NCBI GenBank assembly: GCA_051892815.1
Contig: JBJFGP010000174.1
Location: forward strand, 1 to 42,364
Length of the DNA: 42,364 nt
Origin: Kiritimatiellia bacterium
Lineage (GTDB): Bacteria > Verrucomicrobiota > Kiritimatiellia > RFP12 > DVOR01
Reading direction: 5' to 3'
Part shown: one piece after another, positions 1,896 through 40,488 of the stretch
Layout: every line of letters starts with the position of its first letter
How positions within the stretch are numbered: position 1 is the first letter of the stretch
Translations under genes and position numbers: made by a program
Notes under the pieces: generated by a model
Database searches by the model: none
What the model saw: only the letters and a program-made list of their open reading frames with translations
What the model was told of the DNA's origin: nothing

Positions 1896-3461
1896 CTACC
1901 GAATCAGAATCAGCGTACCGGCGGCGAGCGGCTCGCTCAACTGAAGGGAAAGGTTATTGAGGAAGGTAGCGGCGCCGGTCTCTCCCAAGGTTGTGCCGGC
2001 CATCAACTTGAGGGTGTGGAACCCGGCCTTGAGGCCTTTCAAGGTGACGGTCTCTTCGGTGAAGGTGGTGTTCAACTCCCTTTCGACCACCACTGCTTCT
2101 TTGCCATCGAGGTAGATGGGGATACGCTGTCCGCTCGTATAATTGGCATAGTTCAGCGAGCGCATATTTATCGTCAGCGTGTAGTGTCCGTCGACAGGCG
2201 CACAGAAGGTCTGCTCAAGACCATTGCCGACCTCTGCGCCCACCGGGGCAAGCAAGCAAAGTTCCCAGGAGTTATCACTTGTAGAGCCGCCAACCGGAGT
2301 TCCACCAAGAAGCGCCCAACACACGCCGCCATAACCGTTTCCGGGACCGGTGGCTGACCAGTCCGCAAAGGCTGCATAGGGATAGGTCGCGTTGTAGAAG
2401 TCCCTGACGCGGTTCAGCCAGACGTTCCCTTCCAGACCGCCATGGACCAGTTCGAAGTCGGCATTGGCGAGCAGGTTGGCGTCTGAAGCGATGACCTTTG
2501 CGCTCAGGCGGATGTCGCCGTCACCCTCGGGAACGGTAATCGTCAAGGGGTTGGCAAGGCGGTTTTCTTCGGTGATGCCGTCGCCCACCCAGCCTACGAA
2601 GTAGTATCCGTCGTCGGGGCGGACGGAGAGGGTGTGGGTCTCTCCTGTGGTAATGGCGATTGGCTCGCCGTAGCCTTGAACGGTGCCGTTGGCGACCTCG
2701 ACTTCGATCTGGCGCTCAAAAAGGCCGAACTGCATGTCGTCTATCGTATCGACGGCGGTTGCGCTGCTCTGACAGGGTTCGGCCTGTTCGGTGTAGATGT
2801 CAAGGTCGTAGTCGCCCGCCTCCAACTGGAAGGGCTCGCTCCAGACCCTCTTCCAGTCATCACGGGTAGAGTCCGACCGTACGATATGCTGGAACGTGCG
2901 GCTGAAGACGGCTTGGCCGCCAACTTCGATGGTCATTTTGCTATCGGCCCAGTTGCTGCCGCGTGTGCCGCCGGGACCATGCCAAAAGGAAATCTGATAG
3001 GTTCCCGCCTGAGGCACCGTCACCTTTTGGCGCAGGCGTTTGGGGACATAAACGACGTTCGCCGCACCCGCGGGCGCCTTGGCATGGAATGCAATGCGTT
3101 GATTCTTGCTCTCGCGCGAAGAGGACGAGACCTTACTCACATTGGAATTGGGCGGGGTGTAGTAGATGGTGTTCGGGTAGGTCGTGAGCGTCGTACCGTC
3201 TTCCAACTCGGTATCCTCCTGCACCACGAGCTCCCAGTACGTCAGCGGCTGAATCACAACCCCGCCCGGACTCGTTTGGCCCACGAGTTCCAAATTGCCG
3301 TAGCCGTTGCCCTGGTTCATATTGAGCCGGTCGGGATTTTCGATAGGATCGTCGAACCCCGGATCGTTCAGCAGGTTGTCGCCGACGATGCCAGCACGAG
3401 CCACGTTCACGGAGCAGCAAACCGTTGCCGCCGCAATATAATATGGAATAGACAGACGCAT
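1896..3461 (-). CDS. secreted protein with two CBM/DUF642-like modules flanking an InlB-B-repeat-like module
   Basis: ORF 1896..3623, with the start trimmed to ATG 3461 (MRLSIPYYIAAATVCCSVNVARA signal peptide, AAGG Shine-Dalgarno). Modules start NLLNDPGFDDP and NLLANADFELV. The middle reads GTVQGYGEPIAITTGETHTLSVRPDDGYYFVGWVGDG. The protein ends ...AAGTLILIR. Confidence 0.85.
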   Translation of the reverse strand: MRLSIPYYIAAATVCCSVNVARAGIVGDNLLNDPGFDDPIENPDRLNMNQGNGYGNLELVGQTSPGGVVIQPLTYWELVVQEDTELEDGTTLTTYPNTIYYTPPNSNVSKVSSSSRESKNQRIAFHAKAPAGAANVVYVPKRLRQKVTVPQAGTYQISFWHGPGGTRGSNWADSKMTIEVGGQAVFSRTFQHIVRSDSTRDDWKRVWSEPFQLEAGDYDLDIYTEQAEPCQSSATAVDTIDDMQFGLFERQIEVEVANGTVQGYGEPIAITTGETHTLSVRPDDGYYFVGWVGDGITEENRLANPLTITVPEGDGDIRLSAKVIASDANLLANADFELVHGGLEGNVWLNRVRDFYNATYPYAAFADWSATGPGNGYGGVCWALLGGTPVGGSTSDNSWELCLLAPVGAEVGNGLEQTFCAPVDGHYTLTINMRSLNYANYTSGQRIPIYLDGKEAVVVERELNTTFTEETVTLKGLKAGFHTLKLMAGTTLGETGAATFLNNLSLQLSEPLAAGTLILIR

Positions 3462-3507
3462 AGCGAACCTTTTTGACAAATGATTCTGACAAGACTTTGC
3501 GCCTGTC

Positions 3508-3545
3508 ATTTTAGCCCCCCCCCCCCCCCCCCCCCCTGATGTCAA
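3508..3545 (-). promoter_or_regulatory. sigma70-like promoter: TTGACA (3545..3540), 26-nt spacer containing G22, TAAAAT (3513..3508)
   Basis: The minus strand reads TTTTGCTTGACATCA-G22-CTAAAATGACAGG. It lies about 47 nt upstream of ATG 3461. Confidence 0.5.
3515..3536. repeat. homopolymer C22 (G22 on the coding strand of the downstream gene)
   Basis: Counted directly in the sequence. Confidence 0.95.
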
Positions 3546-3596
3546 GCAAAAAGTGCGTCTCGCGCCAAGAAATTTTTCGGGTTCAATCGGCCCCCA

Positions 3597-3712
3597 CTCC
3601 CCGAAGATGCCAACCTGCCACACCCCAAGGTAGCAATGTCCGCCCCCGAAAGGTACCCGAGATCGGGTGCGGAAGGTGCCTACCCGCCGCCCCGAAAGGT
3701 ACCAACGAAACG
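3597..3712. repeat. tandem array, 5 units, exact 23-bp period (C-rich orientation on plus strand)
   Basis: AAGGT/AAGAT anchors at 3604, 3627, 3650, 3673 and 3696. An example unit is CCCCGAAAGGTACCAAC. Confidence 0.85.
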
Positions 3713-3715
3713 CCC

Positions 3716-4768
3716 CTAGTGCTCCGCCTCGCCCTCGTGGAACGAACCGTCCGCGTGAAAGTGTCCCGAGGCCCCCTTCTCCCCCGCATCAAGCTGCGAA
3801 ACCAGCGCGTAGGCCCCCTCCACCACCACCTCGTCCGACGCCCCGATTCCCTCGACCGCCGCACGACCCTCGCGCTCCGCCAACACACGAACCGGACGCG
3901 CCTCAAAGTGGTCAGACTCCCCCTTCTCCCGCACCAACACCACCAGTTCAAGCCCACGCCGCACCACCGCGCGAGCCGGAACCGTCAGCCGCTCCGCCCC
4001 CCCCTTCGGAGCCAGCCACACCTCCGCCCGCTCCCCAGCCAACGCACCCACCCCCTCCGGCTCCGACAACCTCAGCCGCACCATCCCCTCCGCGCCCGAC
4101 GGCAAAACCGCGTACCTCGCCGGCTGTCCCCCGACCGACACCGATGCTCCATCCTTCAGCCCGCGCCACACCCCCGAAGGCACCTCCAGCGTCAGCGCCA
4201 ACGCCCCCTTCCGCACCAGCCGCACCAGCGAAGCCCCCCCCTCCACCTGCGCCAAATTGCCCGCGTCAAACCCCGACACCACCCCCTCGCACGGCGCCAA
4301 AAGCCGCCACACCCCGCCCGACACCACAACCCCGGAAAGCCCATAGCCCGACATCTCAGACACTACCCTCCCCAACGCCGACTCAAGTTCCGCATGACCC
4401 GTCCCCAACCGCTCATAATGCCCCAGGCGCGCCCTCAACCGAGCCCCCTCCGCCTCAAGCTCCCGCAGCCGAGGTGCCTCCACCTCAGCCAGCGCCTCGC
4501 CCGCCTTCACCCCCGAACCAATCCGAGAAACCAGCCGAACCCGACCCGCCAACGGCGTCCCCAGAACCAAACGATCCTCCTCCGCCACAGCCCAGAAACC
4601 AACCCCGCGCCAGCCCTCCTCCAACACCATCCGCCGCGGACGCTCCACCCTCAAACCAAGCGCCTCCCGAGCCCACTTCCCGACCGTCACAGCCTCCTCG
4701 TGGTGCCCTTCAGCCAACACCGCCAAAGGCAACCAGACCAACAGACAGATACCAACCTTTCCCATCAT
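3716..4768 (-). CDS. efflux RND periplasmic adaptor (membrane fusion protein, CzcB/CusB-like) with His-rich C-terminal tail
   Basis: 350 aa with an N-terminal signal/anchor (MMGKVGICLLVWLPLAVLA), a coiled-coil segment (APRLRELEAEGARLRARL) and a beta-barrel-like C-terminal half. The tail reads GHFHADGSFHEGEAEH. Its ATG overlaps the upstream stop (ATGA). Confidence 0.85.
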   Translation of the reverse strand: MMGKVGICLLVWLPLAVLAEGHHEEAVTVGKWAREALGLRVERPRRMVLEEGWRGVGFWAVAEEDRLVLGTPLAGRVRLVSRIGSGVKAGEALAEVEAPRLRELEAEGARLRARLGHYERLGTGHAELESALGRVVSEMSGYGLSGVVVSGGVWRLLAPCEGVVSGFDAGNLAQVEGGASLVRLVRKGALALTLEVPSGVWRGLKDGASVSVGGQPARYAVLPSGAEGMVRLRLSEPEGVGALAGERAEVWLAPKGGAERLTVPARAVVRRGLELVVLVREKGESDHFEARPVRVLAEREGRAAVEGIGASDEVVVEGAYALVSQLDAGEKGASGHFHADGSFHEGEAEH

Positions 4769-7700
4769 CTCTCAACCTCCTCCAGCCAGCACGCATACCC
4801 CAATTCCGCCGCCGCATCCAGCAACGAATCCGACCACGACAACTCCGACAACGCCCCCTCAAGACGCTCCTCCATCAACTCAAAACACCCCACTGCATCC
4901 ACCTCCCCCGAACGATACAACCCCCACGGATCCAACACCCCCGCCGCCGGCCGGTGTGCCAACAGACGCGACACCTTCCCGGCAACCTCCGCCGCCGCAG
5001 ATACCCTCCTCTTCCAGCACATCGCAACCTCCTCCAGCGACACCTCCCGCCTACCCGTCGCCTCCGCGATTGCCAACCGGTTGCGGTTCCAGATAGGCAG
5101 ACTCACCCCCACGCCGAACCCGAGACGGTCGCTCCCGTCTTCCCGTTCGTAGAGCGGCGAGAGCGACACCTCCGGGTACTGCCGGCGCACTTCAAGCCGC
5201 AACTCCGCTTCGCTTGCCCCGAGCCGCCCCATTGCCGCCAAAACCTCCGGATGGCGCACAAGATCGAGTGCCGCAGGAAGTTTCAGCGGCCCCCTCGGAA
5301 GCGCAGGAATCCCCTCGTCCAAAGCAATCTCCGAGCCCGGATGGAGCCCGAGCAGCCGCTTCAGATCTGCCTCCGCCTCGGCCTCTTTCTCGCGCAACTC
5401 CTGGGCCAGATGCTGCCTTTCGTGGTGGCGGCGGCGTACCGACGAGGCGGTCCCTTTGGAGAGTTCCCCCGCCTGCGACAGGTGGTCGACCGCCGAGAGC
5501 AGAGATGCCAACCTGTCGGACCCCAAGTAGTCAACCACCGTCTCACGGCGGCGGCGTATCCCCTTGAGGCGGAGCCAGGCACGAACGGCGGCGTTGGAGG
5601 TCGAGAGTTCGGCCGATTGGAGGGCAAGTCTCTCGGCTTGGGTGTACATCTCCCGGGCGCGGCGCTGGAGCGAAGGGGTTCCGGAGATGGGCAGGACGAG
5701 GCCGATTCCTGCGCCGAAGAGGAAGGGGTGGTCGGACGGCTGTGCGATGCGCAGGAGGTCGAAGGAGAGGTCGGGATCTGCCCAGTAACCGGAGGCTTGG
5801 GCGGCTTTCCGGGTGTGGGCGAGTTTGGTTCGGGCGAGGCTGAGTTCGGGGTTGCCGATGAGGGCGGTCCTGGCTGCGTCGGCGGGGGTTTGGAGGGTAA
5901 TGCGGGCGGGGCGCCATTGGTCGGATCGGGTCTGGAGGTCGAGTTGGGCGGGGTGGTAGGCGATGCAGCCGGCGAGGAGGATGGGTAGGCAGGCGAGGAG
6001 GGCGGTGGTTGGCACCTTTGGGGTGCGTTCGGTGAGGATGACGAGTGCGGGGAGTACGAGTTGGTTGAGGAGGAGGGCGCCCAGGATGCCGCCGAACTGG
6101 ACGGTTGCGAGGGGGGCGAGGAGTTCGCCTCCGGGGGTGTCGGCGCTGAGCATCAGGGGGATGAGTCCGAGGAGGGTGGTGAGGGTGGTCATTATGATGG
6201 GGGCGAGGCGTTCGCGGGCGCCTTCGCGCAGGGCTCTCGGGAGGGGCTGGCCTTGGTCGAGGCGCTGGAGGAGGGCGTTGAGCAGGAGCAGTCCGTTGCG
6301 CAGGGCAAAGCCTGTGACGGTGACGAAGCCGACTAGGGCGCTGACGCTGAGGCTGGTGTGGGCGAGGCGGGCGGCCAGGATGCCGCCGATGAGGGCGAGG
6401 GGCAGGTTGACGAGGGCCAGGAGGGCGTGGCGGAGGCGTCCGAGGCTCAGGGTGAGGAGGGCGAGGATGAGGGCGAGGAGGGCGGCGGAGGCGAGCAGGA
6501 GGGTGCGGGTGGCGCTTTGGCGGGCTTCGTGGCTGCCGGTGAGGGTGAGGTCGCAGCCTAGGTTTTGGGCGGCGGGTTGGAGGCGTTGGAGGAGGGTTTG
6601 GACGACTTGTCCGCTGCTGGCTTTGCCGTCGAGGTTGCAGGAGATGAGGGCTTTGCGGCGGCCGTTTTCGCGCAGGAGCATCAGGGGGGCTTCTTCGGCG
6701 CGGAGGGTGGCGACGGATGCGAAGGGAACGGGCTGTCCGCGGCCACCGACGAAGGTGAATCGGCGCAGGTCGCGTTCGGTCTGGCTGGAATCGTCGGCGA
6801 GGCGGATAGCAACCTCCCGGCGCGATTGGTTGGCAAGAATGGTTCCCACAGGTAGGCTCCTGTAGGCGGCGGAGATTTGTATCCCCGCATCCCTAAGGTT
6901 CATACCTTCCGCGGCGAGGGCTGCGGGGTCGTAGTCGATGCGCAAGGTACGGCCCGTGGCCTCGCGGTTGGCGCGAATGTCGGCGATGCCGGGCACCGAC
7001 GCGATGAGGGGTTTCAAGGTTTGGACCGCCGCGCGCAAACGATTCGGATCTTCGCAATAGAGGTTCACGGCCAGTTCCGCCTCGGTCCCGGAGAGGATGG
7101 CGCTGATGCGGTGCTCGATGGGATAGCCGACCATCACGCTGGCGCCGGGTATCGATCCGAGCCGTTCGCGGATGGCTTGGCGCACCGCAGAGGCGTCCCC
7201 GTCGAGGTGGACGATGAACTCGGTACTGGAGACAGGTTCGGCGTGCTGATCGCGCTCCGCACGCCCCGTCCGCCGCACGACCTTCCCGACGCCCGGGATG
7301 GAGGAGAGCACCCGACCGGCGTGCCGAGCCGTACGCTCCGCCTCCGGCAGCGACGCCGAAGGACTCAGCGACAAGAGCACATTCAGGGTCGGCTCGTGCA
7401 GCGGCGGCAGGAAACTCGTGCCCAGCCTCGTCGCCAAAGATGCCGACCAGACCGCCAACAGCAAGACGGGAATCAGCGTCAGAATCGGGTGCCGAATCGA
7501 GCACTCCAAACACGGCGCGTAGAGCCGATCCAAAAGCCTCATCAGAGGCGCCCGCCCCTTCGAAACGCCCCCGCCCGAACCACCCTCAAGCAACAGAGAA
7601 AGGCACGGCACCACCACCACCGCAACCGCGAACGACGCCCCCAGAAGCGCCAGATACGCCTTCCCCAAAGGCTTGAAAAATCGCCCCTCCAACCCGGGAA

Positions 7701-9054
7701 GCAGAAACAGCGGAACAAACGCCAGCACGATAATCGCTACCGAACAAAGCACACTCGGAAACACTTCTGCCACCGCATTCGCAACCACCTCCCGCCGCGA
7801 CAGATACCCCCCTTCGTCAAGCCTTCTGCGTATCGCCTCGGCAAAGACAATGCCCGAGTCGACAATGTCTCCAGCCGCAACAGCCACCCCACCCAATGTC
7901 ATCACATCCACCCCAATCCCAAGCACCGGAAAGAGCGAAACACCCGCCAGAACCGTCAGAAAAAGCGACGCCAAAACCACCAGAATCGAACGCCATTTCA
8001 GGAGCGTCAGAGCCAATACCACCAGCACGATCCAAAGCGTGTCCCGGAGGATTCCGCGCACACCCCGGAGCGACGTTTCTATGAAGTCCGCCTGGCGGTA
8101 GGCGGCAGGTTCGACAGTCAGTCGTGCGCCATTCCGGGCGGCGAAGGAAGCCAGCACCGAGTCGATTTTCCGCGTTAGTTCGAGGGTGTTTCCACCGGGC
8201 GTTTTCTGCACGGAGAGGAGTACCGCTTCAGCGGAATCGAGGCTAGCAGAACCCCTTCTGGGTGCGCCCGAAAGGGTGACATCAGCGGCTTGTCGGAGTC
8301 GGAGAGAAGGGCTCAAAGGGAGGTCGCGGAGGGCTTCGAGCGTCTCTACCCGGGCGGTTTGTTCGAGGGGGATTTCTTCAGACCTGTCGTCCGGAAGGTA
8401 GCCTGCGACGGGGCGCGAGAGGGCGGCACGAAGGGTATCGGCGAGTTGGTCTGGGCGGATGCCGAGGGAAGCCAGGCGGATGGGGGTGGTGTTGATTCGA
8501 TATTCGGGAAGGGCACCGCCCATGACGGCGACTTCGCCGACACCTGGGATGGCGAGGAGTTGGGGCCTGAGGTCGTATTCGGCTCGTTCGCGCAGGTCGA
8601 GGAGGTTGGCATCTTTTGTTGGAATCAGTGCGATGAGTTGGATCTCGCCGGTGACTGCCAATGGGGGTGCGATCTCGGGTTTGGCCTCTGGGGGGAGGTC
8701 GGTTTGGAGGCGTGCGAGGCGTTCGTAGAGGCGGGTTCGGGCGCGGTCCAGGTTTTCGCGCCAGTCGAGGTCGATGGTGATGATGGAGAGTCCGATGGTG
8801 GAGGAGCTGCGGATGGTGCGGACTTGGCCGATTCCGTAGGCGGCGGTCTCGAGGATTCGTGTGACGCGCTGTTCGGTTTCGGCGGCGGTGAGTCCGGGGG
8901 CTTCGGTCTGGAGAACGAGTCGCGGGGGTTGGATGTCGGGGAAGATGTCGACGGGCAGCCCGCGCAGTCCCAGGAGGCCGGCGAGGGCTACGGCGGCTAG
9001 GGCTGCGAGGGTGGTCTTGGGGTGGTCGAGGAGGGGTGCAAGGAGGGGGCGCAT
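4765..9054 (-). CDS. RND efflux permease (heavy-metal CzcA/CusA-like, aa 1 to ~1010) fused in frame to an outer-membrane factor (TolC/CzcC-like lipoprotein, aa ~1015-1429)
   Basis: 1429-aa uninterrupted ORF. The N-terminus reads ...LPVDIFPDIQPPRLVLQTEAPGLTAAETEQRVT, and 12-TM RND topology is apparent. An internal lipobox ALLACLPILLAGC has its Cys codon at 5965..5967. It is followed by about 399 aa of OMF-like sequence. Confidence 0.85.
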   Translation of the reverse strand: MRPLLAPLLDHPKTTLAALAAVALAGLLGLRGLPVDIFPDIQPPRLVLQTEAPGLTAAETEQRVTRILETAAYGIGQVRTIRSSSTIGLSIITIDLDWRENLDRARTRLYERLARLQTDLPPEAKPEIAPPLAVTGEIQLIALIPTKDANLLDLRERAEYDLRPQLLAIPGVGEVAVMGGALPEYRINTTPIRLASLGIRPDQLADTLRAALSRPVAGYLPDDRSEEIPLEQTARVETLEALRDLPLSPSLRLRQAADVTLSGAPRRGSASLDSAEAVLLSVQKTPGGNTLELTRKIDSVLASFAARNGARLTVEPAAYRQADFIETSLRGVRGILRDTLWIVLVVLALTLLKWRSILVVLASLFLTVLAGVSLFPVLGIGVDVMTLGGVAVAAGDIVDSGIVFAEAIRRRLDEGGYLSRREVVANAVAEVFPSVLCSVAIIVLAFVPLFLLPGLEGRFFKPLGKAYLALLGASFAVAVVVVPCLSLLLEGGSGGGVSKGRAPLMRLLDRLYAPCLECSIRHPILTLIPVLLLAVWSASLATRLGTSFLPPLHEPTLNVLLSLSPSASLPEAERTARHAGRVLSSIPGVGKVVRRTGRAERDQHAEPVSSTEFIVHLDGDASAVRQAIRERLGSIPGASVMVGYPIEHRISAILSGTEAELAVNLYCEDPNRLRAAVQTLKPLIASVPGIADIRANREATGRTLRIDYDPAALAAEGMNLRDAGIQISAAYRSLPVGTILANQSRREVAIRLADDSSQTERDLRRFTFVGGRGQPVPFASVATLRAEEAPLMLLRENGRRKALISCNLDGKASSGQVVQTLLQRLQPAAQNLGCDLTLTGSHEARQSATRTLLLASAALLALILALLTLSLGRLRHALLALVNLPLALIGGILAARLAHTSLSVSALVGFVTVTGFALRNGLLLLNALLQRLDQGQPLPRALREGARERLAPIIMTTLTTLLGLIPLMLSADTPGGELLAPLATVQFGGILGALLLNQLVLPALVILTERTPKVPTTALLACLPILLAGCIAYHPAQLDLQTRSDQWRPARITLQTPADAARTALIGNPELSLARTKLAHTRKAAQASGYWADPDLSFDLLRIAQPSDHPFLFGAGIGLVLPISGTPSLQRRAREMYTQAERLALQSAELSTSNAAVRAWLRLKGIRRRRETVVDYLGSDRLASLLSAVDHLSQAGELSKGTASSVRRRHHERQHLAQELREKEAEAEADLKRLLGLHPGSEIALDEGIPALPRGPLKLPAALDLVRHPEVLAAMGRLGASEAELRLEVRRQYPEVSLSPLYEREDGSDRLGFGVGVSLPIWNRNRLAIAEATGRREVSLEEVAMCWKRRVSAAAEVAGKVSRLLAHRPAAGVLDPWGLYRSGEVDAVGCFELMEERLEGALSELSWSDSLLDAAAELGYACWLEEVER

Positions 9055-9755: not shown

Positions 9756-9797
9756 GCCTGCACCGGCGGGGGCCGGGCGGGCGGAGGCGGGGGCAGT

Positions 9798-9886
9798 GGG
9801 TAGGCACCTTTGGGGTCGACGGGTTGCAACCTTTCGGGGGCTGAGGTGGGCACCTTCGGGGGCGGGAGGTATCAACCTTTCAGATC
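9798..9886. repeat. tandem array, 4 units, exact 23-bp period (G-rich orientation on plus strand)
   Basis: ACCTT anchors at 9806, 9829, 9852 and 9875. Unit cores are GGTAGGCACC, GGTTGCAACC, GGTGGGCACC and GGTATCAACC. Confidence 0.9.
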
Positions 9887-26326: not shown

Positions 26327-26403
26327 TGGTAGGGCAGGCGGGGATCGAACCCGCGGCCTCCGGATTAGGAATCCAACGCTCTGTCCAACTGAGCTACTGC
26401 CCT
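26327..26403 (-). tRNA. tRNA-Arg, anticodon CCU, CCA encoded
   Basis: Hand-folded 77-nt cloverleaf. Acceptor AGGGCAG/CTGCCCT, D stem GCTC/GAGC, anticodon stem TTGGA/TCCGG with loop TTCCTAA, T stem GCGGG/CCCGC with loop TTCGATC, discriminator A, then CCA. Confidence 0.9.
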
Positions 26404-38428: not shown

Positions 38429-38457
38429 AGGATAACATTTTCCCCAAAAGGAATCAA
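38429..38457 (-). promoter_or_regulatory. pta promoter TTGATT (38457..38452) - 17 nt - TATCCT (38434..38429)
   Basis: Read directly on the minus strand. An AAGGAA Shine-Dalgarno precedes GTG 38392. Confidence 0.4.
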
Positions 38458-38472
38458 CCAAAATGGCCGATT

Positions 38473-38580
38473 GGTTGGCACCTTGAGGGGCGGGAGGTGG
38501 CTACCTTTCGGGGGCGGTGGTTGGTACCTTGGGGGCTAAAAGGTAGCAACCCTTCGCCGTCGGAGGTTGGTCCGGCGGGA
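38473..38580. repeat. tandem array, 5 units, 23-bp period
   Basis: ACCTT anchors at 38480, 38503 and 38526, then 38550 (24 nt), then a degenerate fifth unit. Cores are GGTTGGCACC, GGTGGCTACC, GGTTGGTACC and GGTAGCAACC. Confidence 0.85.
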
Positions 38581-38625: not shown

Positions 38626-40299
38626 CTAGCGCAGGAAGATGAGGGTGGGGTTGGCGCTGCGCTTGCGATAGAGGACGACATGCTGGACGCCGTCGACGGT
38701 CTCAATACGCACGGCGGGCGAGTAGATGCCGTCGGGATCGGTGCCGTCGTCGGTATCGAAGAAACAGTTGGATACGTCAAAATCGGCGGCGGTAAGGGTA
38801 CGCACGGAGGTCGGTACCTTCATTAGCGTCCACCCTTTGGCCGAGAGCGGATTCGCCAAGGGAATGGCCACCGTGGCGGCGATCTTGACGGTTCCTTCGA
38901 GGGTGCAGGATTCGTCCAGCACGAAGCAATCGCTGACGCAGACCTCGTCCTTGATGTCGATTTCGCACTTGACGCCGCCGCCAACGAAGTGGGCGTTCTT
39001 GAGCGCAACCTCCTCCGTCCCGACCGCACTCGAAGAGGCCACCGGTCTAGGATGGACATAGTGGCCAATACCCGCTTGTGAATGGGCAATCGCCGTCGCA
39101 TTGCTGGAGACCCCCGGGTGTAGGTAGGCGCACAATTCAGGGTTGGCAGCGCAGGAGTGGGCGCCAGCGTAATACGAGTAGCAACCGGCATGGATCCAAC
39201 CGCCCTCCAGCTTCAGTTGGTGGGTGGGAATACGGGCGGCATCCAAGGCAATCGTGCCATTCTCCTCCGCCCGCAGAAGCGTACCTTCCGGAATCGCATA
39301 GGCATTCTCAATCTGCAGCAAGGTATTCGTTGAAGCCGTCAGACGGGGCGTACCCTCCGAGCACGAAAGCGCCCCAGAAACCAACACAAAGCCGTGTTCC
39401 AGCGGGCATGAATCCGTCTTATTCACAAAGACCACCTCGCCCTTGCTCTCCAGGTACCAGTTCTGCATCCGCTCGGGCTTGTGCGTACCATAAGAGCTGT
39501 TGCGATTCTCGAACCACATGCCCGCCTCGTCGACCACCCAGCCGTTCTTGGCGCAGTCGAGAACGATATGCCCGCCCGAGAGGGTGAACATGTAGAAGAA
39601 ACCAGCACCACCACACACCTCAATCGCATCTGCCCGAAGTCCGCTACGGCTCGAACCGAACGACGGGAAACCACTGGACAACACCCCGTCCGAGCCATCA
39701 TAGATGACCTTTCCCAGGTAGTTTCCGCCCGTAATGGTAATCGGGTTCCAGGTAGTTGAGCCCGTTTCACGGAGCACCTTGACTGCGCTGCTTTCCGGCC
39801 CGGACAAAGGCACCCCGACACCCCCAGTCACATTACCTGTCTTCAGCGCAACAATGCGAAAAGGGTTTGCTGCCGTGGATTCGACCAGGCCGGCATTCTG
39901 CAAAGCCGTGTTACATTCCACTAGCAATTCGCCGGAGTGGAGCACGAGTTCCGGGATGACTATTTTACCGTTCCATTTGCCGGACATTCGTAGCGCGCCT
40001 TCGGTCTCGTCGGTGCCGATGGTCAGCCGCTGGCCTGCGAAGGTTTGGGTTCCACGGTCGATACCCATAATCCAGAGGGCATTCTCGGACCCCGGGCCCA
40101 AGGCGACCAGGTAGTGGTTGGTGACGGCGGCACCCTCTTCGGGTGCGGACGGGGCTTCGCCATTGCTCCAGCTGCCCGCCGCCACGAAGGAGGAGTTGGC
40201 GTACGAGCCGTCGCCCTGCGTCAAGGTGACGGTATTGATCTCGGCCAACACCGAGAGGCTGCCCAGCAAAGCGACCGCGACAATAAAAATAAAACTCAT
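38626..40299 (-). CDS. secreted protein of unknown family (557 aa)
   Basis: Signal peptide MSFIFIVAVALLGSLSVLAEI. Beta-rich and Cys-containing. Ends ...ANPTLIFLR. AAGGGA Shine-Dalgarno. Confidence 0.8.
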   Translation of the reverse strand: MSFIFIVAVALLGSLSVLAEINTVTLTQGDGSYANSSFVAAGSWSNGEAPSAPEEGAAVTNHYLVALGPGSENALWIMGIDRGTQTFAGQRLTIGTDETEGALRMSGKWNGKIVIPELVLHSGELLVECNTALQNAGLVESTAANPFRIVALKTGNVTGGVGVPLSGPESSAVKVLRETGSTTWNPITITGGNYLGKVIYDGSDGVLSSGFPSFGSSRSGLRADAIEVCGGAGFFYMFTLSGGHIVLDCAKNGWVVDEAGMWFENRNSSYGTHKPERMQNWYLESKGEVVFVNKTDSCPLEHGFVLVSGALSCSEGTPRLTASTNTLLQIENAYAIPEGTLLRAEENGTIALDAARIPTHQLKLEGGWIHAGCYSYYAGAHSCAANPELCAYLHPGVSSNATAIAHSQAGIGHYVHPRPVASSSAVGTEEVALKNAHFVGGGVKCEIDIKDEVCVSDCFVLDESCTLEGTVKIAATVAIPLANPLSAKGWTLMKVPTSVRTLTAADFDVSNCFFDTDDGTDPDGIYSPAVRIETVDGVQHVVLYRKRSANPTLIFLR

Positions 40300-40330: not shown

Positions 40331-40358
40331 TAGAATAACTGCCCCCCCCCCCTGTCAA
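40331..40358 (-). promoter_or_regulatory. promoter-like TTGACA (40358..40353) followed directly by G11 (40352..40342), then CAGTTATTCTAGAGC
   Basis: It shares the TTTTGCTTGACA-polyG architecture seen at 3508..3545. Candidate -10 hexamers are TATTCT (15-nt spacer) and TAGAGC (20-nt spacer). Confidence 0.45.
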
Positions 40359-40417
40359 GCAAAATCGTCATTTCTCGTCAATTATTTTTCTCGGCTGGTA
40401 GACAGGAATTGGTCGCA

Positions 40418-40488
40418 GGGGTATCAACCTTTCGGGGGCGAAGGTCGTTATCAATGGGTGTGGGAGGTAGGAACCTTTTTTGCGGCGC
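40418..40488. repeat. array of the 23-bp family, 3 units (middle one degenerate)
   Basis: ACCTT anchors at 40427 and 40473 (46 = 2 x 23). Cores are GGTATCAACC and GGTAGGAACC. Confidence 0.7.

Follow-up and report, generated by a model that had tools for sequence, protein, structure and literature searches.

A 22-nt G tract in the −35/−10 spacer upstream of an exported-protein gene of a Kiritimatiellia bacterium: a candidate promoter-spacer switch

Homopolymer switches in promoters are textbook knowledge for a handful of host-adapted pathogens. In Neisseria, tracts of about 8–17 nt form part of a longer spacer of mixed sequence, and their variation is centred on the optimal spacing. The poly-C tracts of Bordetella pertussis fim2/fim3 and the poly-A tracts of Mycoplasma hyorhinis vlp have lengths of 13–20 nt and are located between an upstream recognition element and the −10 box; in Bordetella, the tract separates the site of the activator BvgA from the −10 box. 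In both of these systems, several paralogous surface genes each carry their own tract, which generates combinatorial variation. Moraxella and Helicobacter are also genera with known phase variation. In the known switches, the excursions are typically ±1–2 nt about the optimum. To our knowledge, the stochastic control of surface proteins is almost unexplored in the uncultured commensal phyla.

For porA, opc, and fetA of Neisseria meningitidis and N. gonorrhoeae, the homopolymer lies between the −10 and −35 elements, and its length alters the spacing and, through it, the level of transcription (PMC2791445); a sequence-only reading of the DNA studied here had called such a mechanism established in other bacteria, and this description is borne out by these genes. 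In Akkermansia muciniphila, a G9 tract in Amuc_1413 was proposed to be phase-variable, and the trait is surface-related (PMC13055324). A full-text literature search returned no paper that links Kiritimatiellia with phase variation.

The DNA examined here is one complete contig of 42,364 nt (hereafter, the window, meaning the whole stretch analysed), whose proteins have their closest relatives in MAGs annotated as Kiritimatiellia bacterium. It carries, internally, a run of 22 G's (G22) within a predicted promoter. We consider that this tract is probably a slippage-driven promoter-spacer switch, of the ON/OFF or the volume type, for an exported protein.

The predicted promoter at 3508..3545 and a second site in the window

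The minus strand of the promoter, read directly from the sequence, is TTTTGC-TTGACA-TCA-G22-C-TAAAAT, and its wider context is ...CCGAAAAATTTCTTGGCGCGAGACGCACTTTTTGC-TTGACA-TCA-G22-C-TAAAAT-GACAGG.... The −35 hexamer TTGACA (6/6; 3545..3540) lies inside the 12-mer TTTTGCTTGACA and is followed by TCA (3539..3537), by the G22 homopolymer with the G's on the sense strand (3536..3515), by a single C (3514), and, one base past the tract, by the −10 hexamer TAAAAT (5/6; 3513..3508). The tract accounts for nearly the whole of the spacer, and TCA, G22, and C together amount to 26 nt, which is 9 nt over the optimum. The sequence, the boxes, and the 26-nt spacer are thus as the sequence-only reading had described them. 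An A/T-rich UP-like element, GAAAAATTTCTTG (3566..3578, minus strand), is located 20 nt upstream of the −35 hexamer; its distance to the motif TTGCTTGAYA is 16 nt, and the element is conserved at this distance in two related loci described below (L002 and L085) and at the second site in the window. The promoter is positioned 47 nt upstream of the ATG at 3461 of the open reading frame 1896..3461 (minus strand), and a ribosome-binding motif, AAAAGG (3473..3468, minus strand), precedes this ATG. The tract is therefore located between the TTGACA and TAAAAT of the predicted promoter of the gene that it would control, and these two hexamers are presumably the boxes actually used.

The homopolymer scan found only two runs longer than 8 in the 42,364 nt: G22 and an 11-mer at 40342..40352. 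Both have the length, about 8 or more, at which a homopolymeric simple sequence repeat can slip. At a GC content of 63.6%, the chance expectation is about 4e-7 runs of at least 22 and about 0.1 runs of at least 11 (per base type), while the runs of 7–8 G or C in the contig were close to the chance count.

The second run forms part of a similar arrangement. The minus strand there reads TTTTGC-TTGACA-G11-CAGT-TATTCT, 42 nt before the ATG at 40299: the −35 hexamer TTGACA (40353..40358) lies within TTTTGCTTGACA at 40353..40364, the G11 tract (40342..40352) follows directly, and the best −10 candidate is TATTCT (4/6; 40332..40337), which gives a spacer (G11 plus CAGT) of 15 nt. The 12-mer TTTTGCTTGACA precedes both the G22 and the G11 tracts. 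The window contains just two copies of the 10-mer TTGCTTGACA, one directly in front of each G tract. At both sites, an A/T-rich GAAAAAT..TTG element is positioned 16 nt upstream of TTGCTTGACA.

Other candidates for the initiation signal were considered. The consensus promoter scan was restricted to spacers of 16–18 nt and therefore did not call the G22 promoter; it returned one weak overlapping match, ATGACA-18-AATCAT (9/12), which was rejected as an alternative promoter because it is weak, overlaps the −10 hexamer, and is not conserved in the related locus L001. Reiterative transcription or transcriptional slippage of the pyrG and pyrBI type was also dismissed, because there is a single good −10 hexamer and the tract precedes it. 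The Rfam search gave no match near the promoter, and its sole match was a tRNA at 26330..26403.

The upstream half of the promoter was examined by a metagenome scan with a pattern that omits the tract, AAAATWWYTTG-N16-TTGCTTGAYA, which was meant to gather the Kiritimatiellia promoters of this family. It gathered 69 generic strong promoters from many phyla, and poly-G was found in none of the matches (0/69). Since these are ordinary promoters of diverse origin, the upstream half represents a generic arrangement of an UP element and a −35 box; the unusual part of the promoter is the all-G spacer, and not the UP/−35 half.

When the tract was included in the pattern (TTGCTTGAYA-N0-4-G≥9), the genome-contig scan gave 91 loci (L004–L094), mostly from MAGs of uncultured gut Clostridia/Christensenellaceae, with several loci per genome. 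CALBHW01 has seven such loci, most of them G15–G22, and CAKVCH01 has three (G16–G20), while a bin labelled 'Alphaproteobacteria', CALXTZ01, has six (G12–G13). Other PVC MAGs also carry the pattern, and several tracts in the scan are located at contig ends.

Related loci and variation in tract length

The closest independent counterpart of the locus was found in GCA_051884955.1 (L002). Its gene order is that of the window, namely, an RND pump (1429 aa), a membrane-fusion protein (MFP; 350 aa), an intergenic region, and the orthologue of the controlled gene, and over the 163 nt that precede the tract the two sequences share about 88% identity. Because flanking DNA of such identity occurs elsewhere in the same gene order, the tract does not join unrelated DNA. 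This result bears on the reading that the tract is a pure artefact, in which a poly-G read tail from two-colour chemistry glued unrelated contigs together. Poly-G tails are indeed a known artefact, and junk-like matches occur at some MAG contig ends (for example, L034, where G22 is followed by A-rich noise). However, the flanks of the tract make a complete promoter, the gene order across it and flanking DNA of 88% identity are present in the independent MAG, and the same design recurs at the second locus of the window as well as at orthologous loci from independent runs. We regard this reading as highly improbable, and the possibility of an assembly artefact, which the sequence-only reading had itself raised, is contradicted by the synteny and by the recurrence at other loci and in other runs.

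The related loci fall into three protein families. In family A, to which the protein of 1896..3461 (window protein 1) belongs, the contig of L001 (63% orthologue) starts with a-CTAAAAT, precisely where the tract would end on its downstream side. The loci L165–L168 (62% orthologue P0002; an identical protein in four runs) have gTTGACA-Gn-TAATGTTGTAGAAT, where the tract is G10 or G11. In L002 and L003, TTGATA-TCA-G6AG6 is joined directly to about codon 25 of the gene, whereas L164 (53% orthologue) has no tract. The same G6AG6 junction is seen in both assemblies, at 2990..3030 of L002 (GCA_051884955.1) and at 1230..1270 of L003 (Logan SRR30616771), and the orthologue there lacks the −10 hexamer together with the 5′-UTR, start codon, and signal peptide, the deposited protein beginning at the TTG of the −35 region. 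Either this junction is a real deletion from G-run to G-run, in which case the gene would be a pseudogene locked in the OFF state, or the assembly went wrong at the tract.

In family B, L170, which encodes an 81% orthologue of the protein at the second site (window protein 2), has ..GAGCACA-G11-TAAAGTGTATAAT, and L169 shows no tract within its 50 nt of upstream sequence. A further G10 is present in L170 at 2164..2173. It shares the divergent intergenic region with the G11 promoter tract, from which it is separated by about 270 nt on the upstream side, and it adjoins a 1172-aa gene on the other strand. In family C, L085 (MAG SUG3732) has TTGACA-TCA-G10-TAAAAT before a 491-aa signal-peptide protein that is unrelated to families A and B, and its 69-nt upstream module is significantly similar to that of the window. 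L171, with a 97% identical protein from another run, has G11, and the contig of L172 (53% orthologue) starts inside the tract, with GGGGGG-TAGAAT; TAAAAT or TAGAAT abuts the tract in all three of these loci. Another locus of the MAG that contains L085, L021, has TTGCTTGACA-G17 close to a contig end.

Throughout the Kiritimatiellia DNA compared, the runs of at least 9 G or C are all intergenic, and their G's are on the strand that is sense for the gene downstream. With one exception, they are located within about 40–70 nt of an ATG, and most directly follow ..ACA. The tract is thus conserved both among orthologues and in front of unrelated genes. Judged from these sequences, one design, composed of the UP-like element, TTGACA, a G tract, and a −10 hexamer, precedes at least three unrelated, putatively exported proteins in this Kiritimatiellia lineage. 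Exact look-up found neither window protein 1 nor the MFP on record in other assemblies, and P0008 and P0010 were likewise not on record.

The clearest length difference was seen in family A. L165 and L168 have G11 and L166 and L167 have G10, whereas the 1713 nt that follow the tract show 0 mismatches among the four contigs; on the upstream side, a further 125 nt are identical in L165 and L166, so that 1838 nt in total are otherwise identical. In family C, G10 of L085 and G11 of L171 distinguish two strains with 97% identity. The repeat number therefore differs at the related loci (L165–L168; L085/L171), and not at the window's own locus. The sequence-only reading, which had proposed the spacer homopolymer as a candidate switch, gains support from this result, since the design recurs elsewhere and G10/G11 is the sole difference between otherwise identical contigs. 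The G10/G11 differences could partly reflect Illumina homopolymer error, which is less likely for majority calls, or fixed strain differences.

At least four contigs of the relatives (L001, L167, L168, and L172) end at the tract or within a few bases of it, and those of L167 and L168 start 3–7 nt before it. These start points were not accepted as proof that the tract is heterogeneous within a sample, because a simple two-allele bubble predicts other break positions; breaks of this kind are at most suggestive of switching within the population. They are also what would be seen if the tract were real and its assembled length wrong. In that case, the true tract would have either about 13 G's, which gives a 17-nt spacer and an ordinary strong promoter, or a much longer and heterogeneous run, and G22 would be the assembler's product of low-quality reads. 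Several tracts of the Clostridia MAGs at contig ends and the scrambled G6AG6 of L002 and L003 point in the same direction, as does the number itself, for 22 equals 21 + 1, that is, k + 1 for the common k = 21, possibly a value to which a de Bruijn graph collapses. On the other hand, the tract is internal to a 42-kb contig with the correct gene order on both sides, and the shorter tracts that were cleanly assembled (G10/G11) vary between samples as well. We give the wrong-length reading a real but minor share of the probability. It leaves the switch standing in any case, because a length that assemblers are unable to resolve is what a heterogeneous tract looks like.

The controlled proteins and neighbouring features

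The gene at 1896..3461 (minus strand) encodes window protein 1, a 521-aa putatively exported, predicted all-beta protein with the C-terminal tail ..AGTLILIR. Its N-terminal signal peptide, MRLSIPYYIAAATVCCSVNVARA/G..., was recognized by inspection, in accordance with the secreted product that the sequence-only reading had named. The carbohydrate-binding-like modules of the same reading were not supported: the only Pfam match was an InlB B-repeat (Flg_new_2) at residues 256–314, NCBIfam gave nothing beyond this match, and relaxed scans with both Pfam and NCBIfam revealed no carbohydrate-binding module. The AlphaFold model, built from a 5-sequence alignment, was all-beta with a pLDDT of 51, too poor for a fold search. 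The gene at the second site (38626..40299, minus strand) encodes window protein 2, a 557-aa signal-peptide protein that has the tail ..NPTLIFLR, is unrelated to window protein 1, and matched no family in the Pfam search. N-terminal signal peptides were identified by inspection in all three protein families.

Window protein 1 and its orthologue in the L002 MAG show 63% amino acid identity, as compared with 83% for the neighbouring MFP (3716..4768) and about 88% nucleotide identity for the intergenic region. The faster divergence of the controlled gene than of its neighbour would fit an exposed, fast-evolving product.

A short hydrophobic tail is conserved at the extreme C-terminus of all of the proteins with poly-G promoters, that is, in three unrelated families: ..AGTLILIR, ..SGTLILIR, ..PTGFLITIR, ..KGICIYLR, ..NPTLIFLR, ..NPTIIFLR, ..SGFMVIVR, and ..AGTVLYIY. 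The tails are encoded at 1896..1925 and 38626..38655 of the window, in P0001–P0007, and at 4200..4227 of L085, and within the window only these two were found among the open reading frames of at least 150 aa. No Pfam or NCBIfam model matched the tail, which does not have the length needed for a transmembrane helix; it may serve this lineage as a specific signal for sorting or anchoring.

Other features were noted around the promoters. Intergenic arrays of 3–5 imperfect 23-nt units (about GGTAGGCACCTTTCGGGGGCGGn) are located at 3599..3717 (minus strand) and at 9789..9881, 38450..38555, and 40397..40479 (plus strand). Of these four arrays, two immediately precede the poly-G promoters and are oppositely oriented. 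An array is conserved in L002 and similar units are present in L085; the array core ACCTTNGGGG is over-represented (27 matches versus 13 expected). The arrays have no Rfam match, and the RNA of 3550..3720 gave a folding z of −2.7. The upstream efflux gene (4765..9054, minus strand) encodes a 1429-aa fusion of a full AcrB/RND transporter (residues 10–1007) with an outer-membrane-factor (OEP) region (residues 1059–1236), which is an unusual combination in one polypeptide; a 1429-aa orthologue is also present in L002.

Spacer lengths, proposed mechanism, and comparison with known systems

The optimal spacer for sigma-70 is about 17 nt, and one of 26 nt is too long for a single holoenzyme to contact both boxes. 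The promoter as assembled is therefore predicted to be silent or very weak, unless the true length differs from the assembly. That is, spacing rules for sigma-70 predict the G22 allele to be OFF or weak, with the reservation that the assembled length of 22 is unreliable; the rules applied here are those for sigma-70 in general, from which the sigma-factor specificity of Kiritimatiellia may differ. Tracts of G12–G14 in TCA-Gn-C would give spacers of 16–18 nt. Among the other alleles, L085 and L171 have spacers of 13–14 nt, which are too short, the second site of the window has 15 nt, and L165, L166, and L170 have 18–19 nt when measured to a better downstream hexamer. Few of the observed alleles are thus at the predicted ON length, but a scatter of alleles on both sides of the optimum is what one would expect if a mutable switch had been sampled in a mixture of its states. 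The wider survey covered 87 TTGAYA-N0-4-G≥9 sites from public genomes, of which 71 had a callable −10 hexamer: most of the 71 spacers were 15–20 nt long, and only four, including that of the G22 promoter, were 25–27 nt long. The 9-nt excess is far from the small excursions of the classic switches, and this counts against the switch reading. In addition, the search for terminator-like sites found none that would separate the promoter from the RND/MFP genes, which lie upstream in the same direction, so that read-through may express the gene regardless of the tract.

The spacers of 13, 14, 15, and 26 nt, which are incompatible with simultaneous contact at −35 and −10, might also be taken to indicate that length does not matter. 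The poly-G would then be a conserved structural or protein-binding element that acts independently of its length, with TTGACA used differently or not at all; it may be a spacer made rigid by an A-form-like structure, a non-template strand that folds into a G-quadruplex, or a binding site for a regulator through which a −10-only promoter is activated. In favour of such an element, every tract has its G's on the sense strand and most tracts are directly adjacent to a TAnnnT hexamer, and the shared 69-nt upstream module and the 23-nt repeat arrays that adjoin the promoters could bind a factor. However, the length differs in otherwise identical sequences, which a fixed element would not tolerate, and the perfect TTGACA and the UP-like element at its canonical distance are hard to explain if they are unused. 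We thus consider a length-independent role unlikely.

The promoter-spacer switch, which we prefer, would work as follows. The G22 tract would be a real hypermutable homopolymer that constitutes almost the entire spacer of a sigma-70-type promoter (UP-like element, TTGACA, tract, and TAAAAT). Slipped-strand mispairing at replication would add or remove G's, and the changed number would alter both how far apart the −35 and −10 boxes are and their rotational phase. Transcription of the downstream gene for the exported protein would thereby be switched or graded. This scheme supposes that the length changes arise by slippage, at a high rate and reversibly, and that they alter expression.

A broader proposal is more tentative, and we put it forward as conceivable rather than probable. 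Kiritimatiellia, several uncultured gut Clostridia, and other MAG lineages might share an unrecognised phasome, in which a modular cassette, made up of the UP-like element, TTGACA, 10 to >20 G's as the spacer, and TAAAAT, precedes many unrelated exported proteins, those of Kiritimatiellia bearing a short C-terminal [G/P]-T/F-h-I-h-h-R/Y tail that might be a new signal for sorting. Short-read assemblers break or scramble contigs at such tracts, and the switches would therefore systematically escape notice.

If the switch reading is correct, three consequences follow. It would provide a concrete, testable example of a promoter-spacer switch in the PVC group, and it would define a group of target proteins with a common promoter design, which probably face hosts, phages, or competitors. 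It would also be a warning that such tracts fragment or corrupt metagenome assemblies at regulatory sites, as is seen in the contig ends and in the spurious or real promoter-to-CDS fusion of a public MAG.

Finally, the locus can be compared with the described systems. It resembles porA (poly-G), opc (poly-C), and fetA (poly-C) of Neisseria in having a G or C homopolymer in the promoter spacer of a surface-protein gene, the effect on expression, with graded or ON/OFF output, being presumed here. Unlike the Neisseria tracts, that of the window is 22 nt long and takes up nearly the whole of a 26-nt spacer, and its host is an uncultured commensal of the PVC group and not a pathogen. With the Bordetella and Mycoplasma systems, it shares a long homopolymer in front of the −10 box and separate tracts for several genes. 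Unlike in Bordetella, the window has a canonical TTGACA, and the controlled proteins are unrelated apart from their termini. The closest likeness in layout came from the poly-G promoters of Moraxella and Helicobacter that appeared in the same scan, TTGACA-AAT-G14-TAAAAT (L065; spacer of 17 nt) and TTGACA-G14-TAGAAT (L049): they also consist of TTGACA, 0–3 nt, and a G tract with an abutting TAAAAT or TAGAAT, but their alleles are at or near functional spacing. With Amuc_1413 of Akkermansia, the window shares a poly-G tract in a gut member of the PVC superphylum, whereas the Akkermansia tract is intragenic, would act by frameshift as a translational ON/OFF switch, and is only 9 nt long. By its sequence, the mechanism would likely belong to the promoter-spacer homopolymer class of porA, opc, and fetA, and thus to an already known kind. 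Some features stand out, namely, the extreme tract length, the repeated use of one cassette in front of exported proteins that are unrelated but have the tail in common, and the all-G spacers that seem to be abundant in MAGs of uncultured gut Clostridia.
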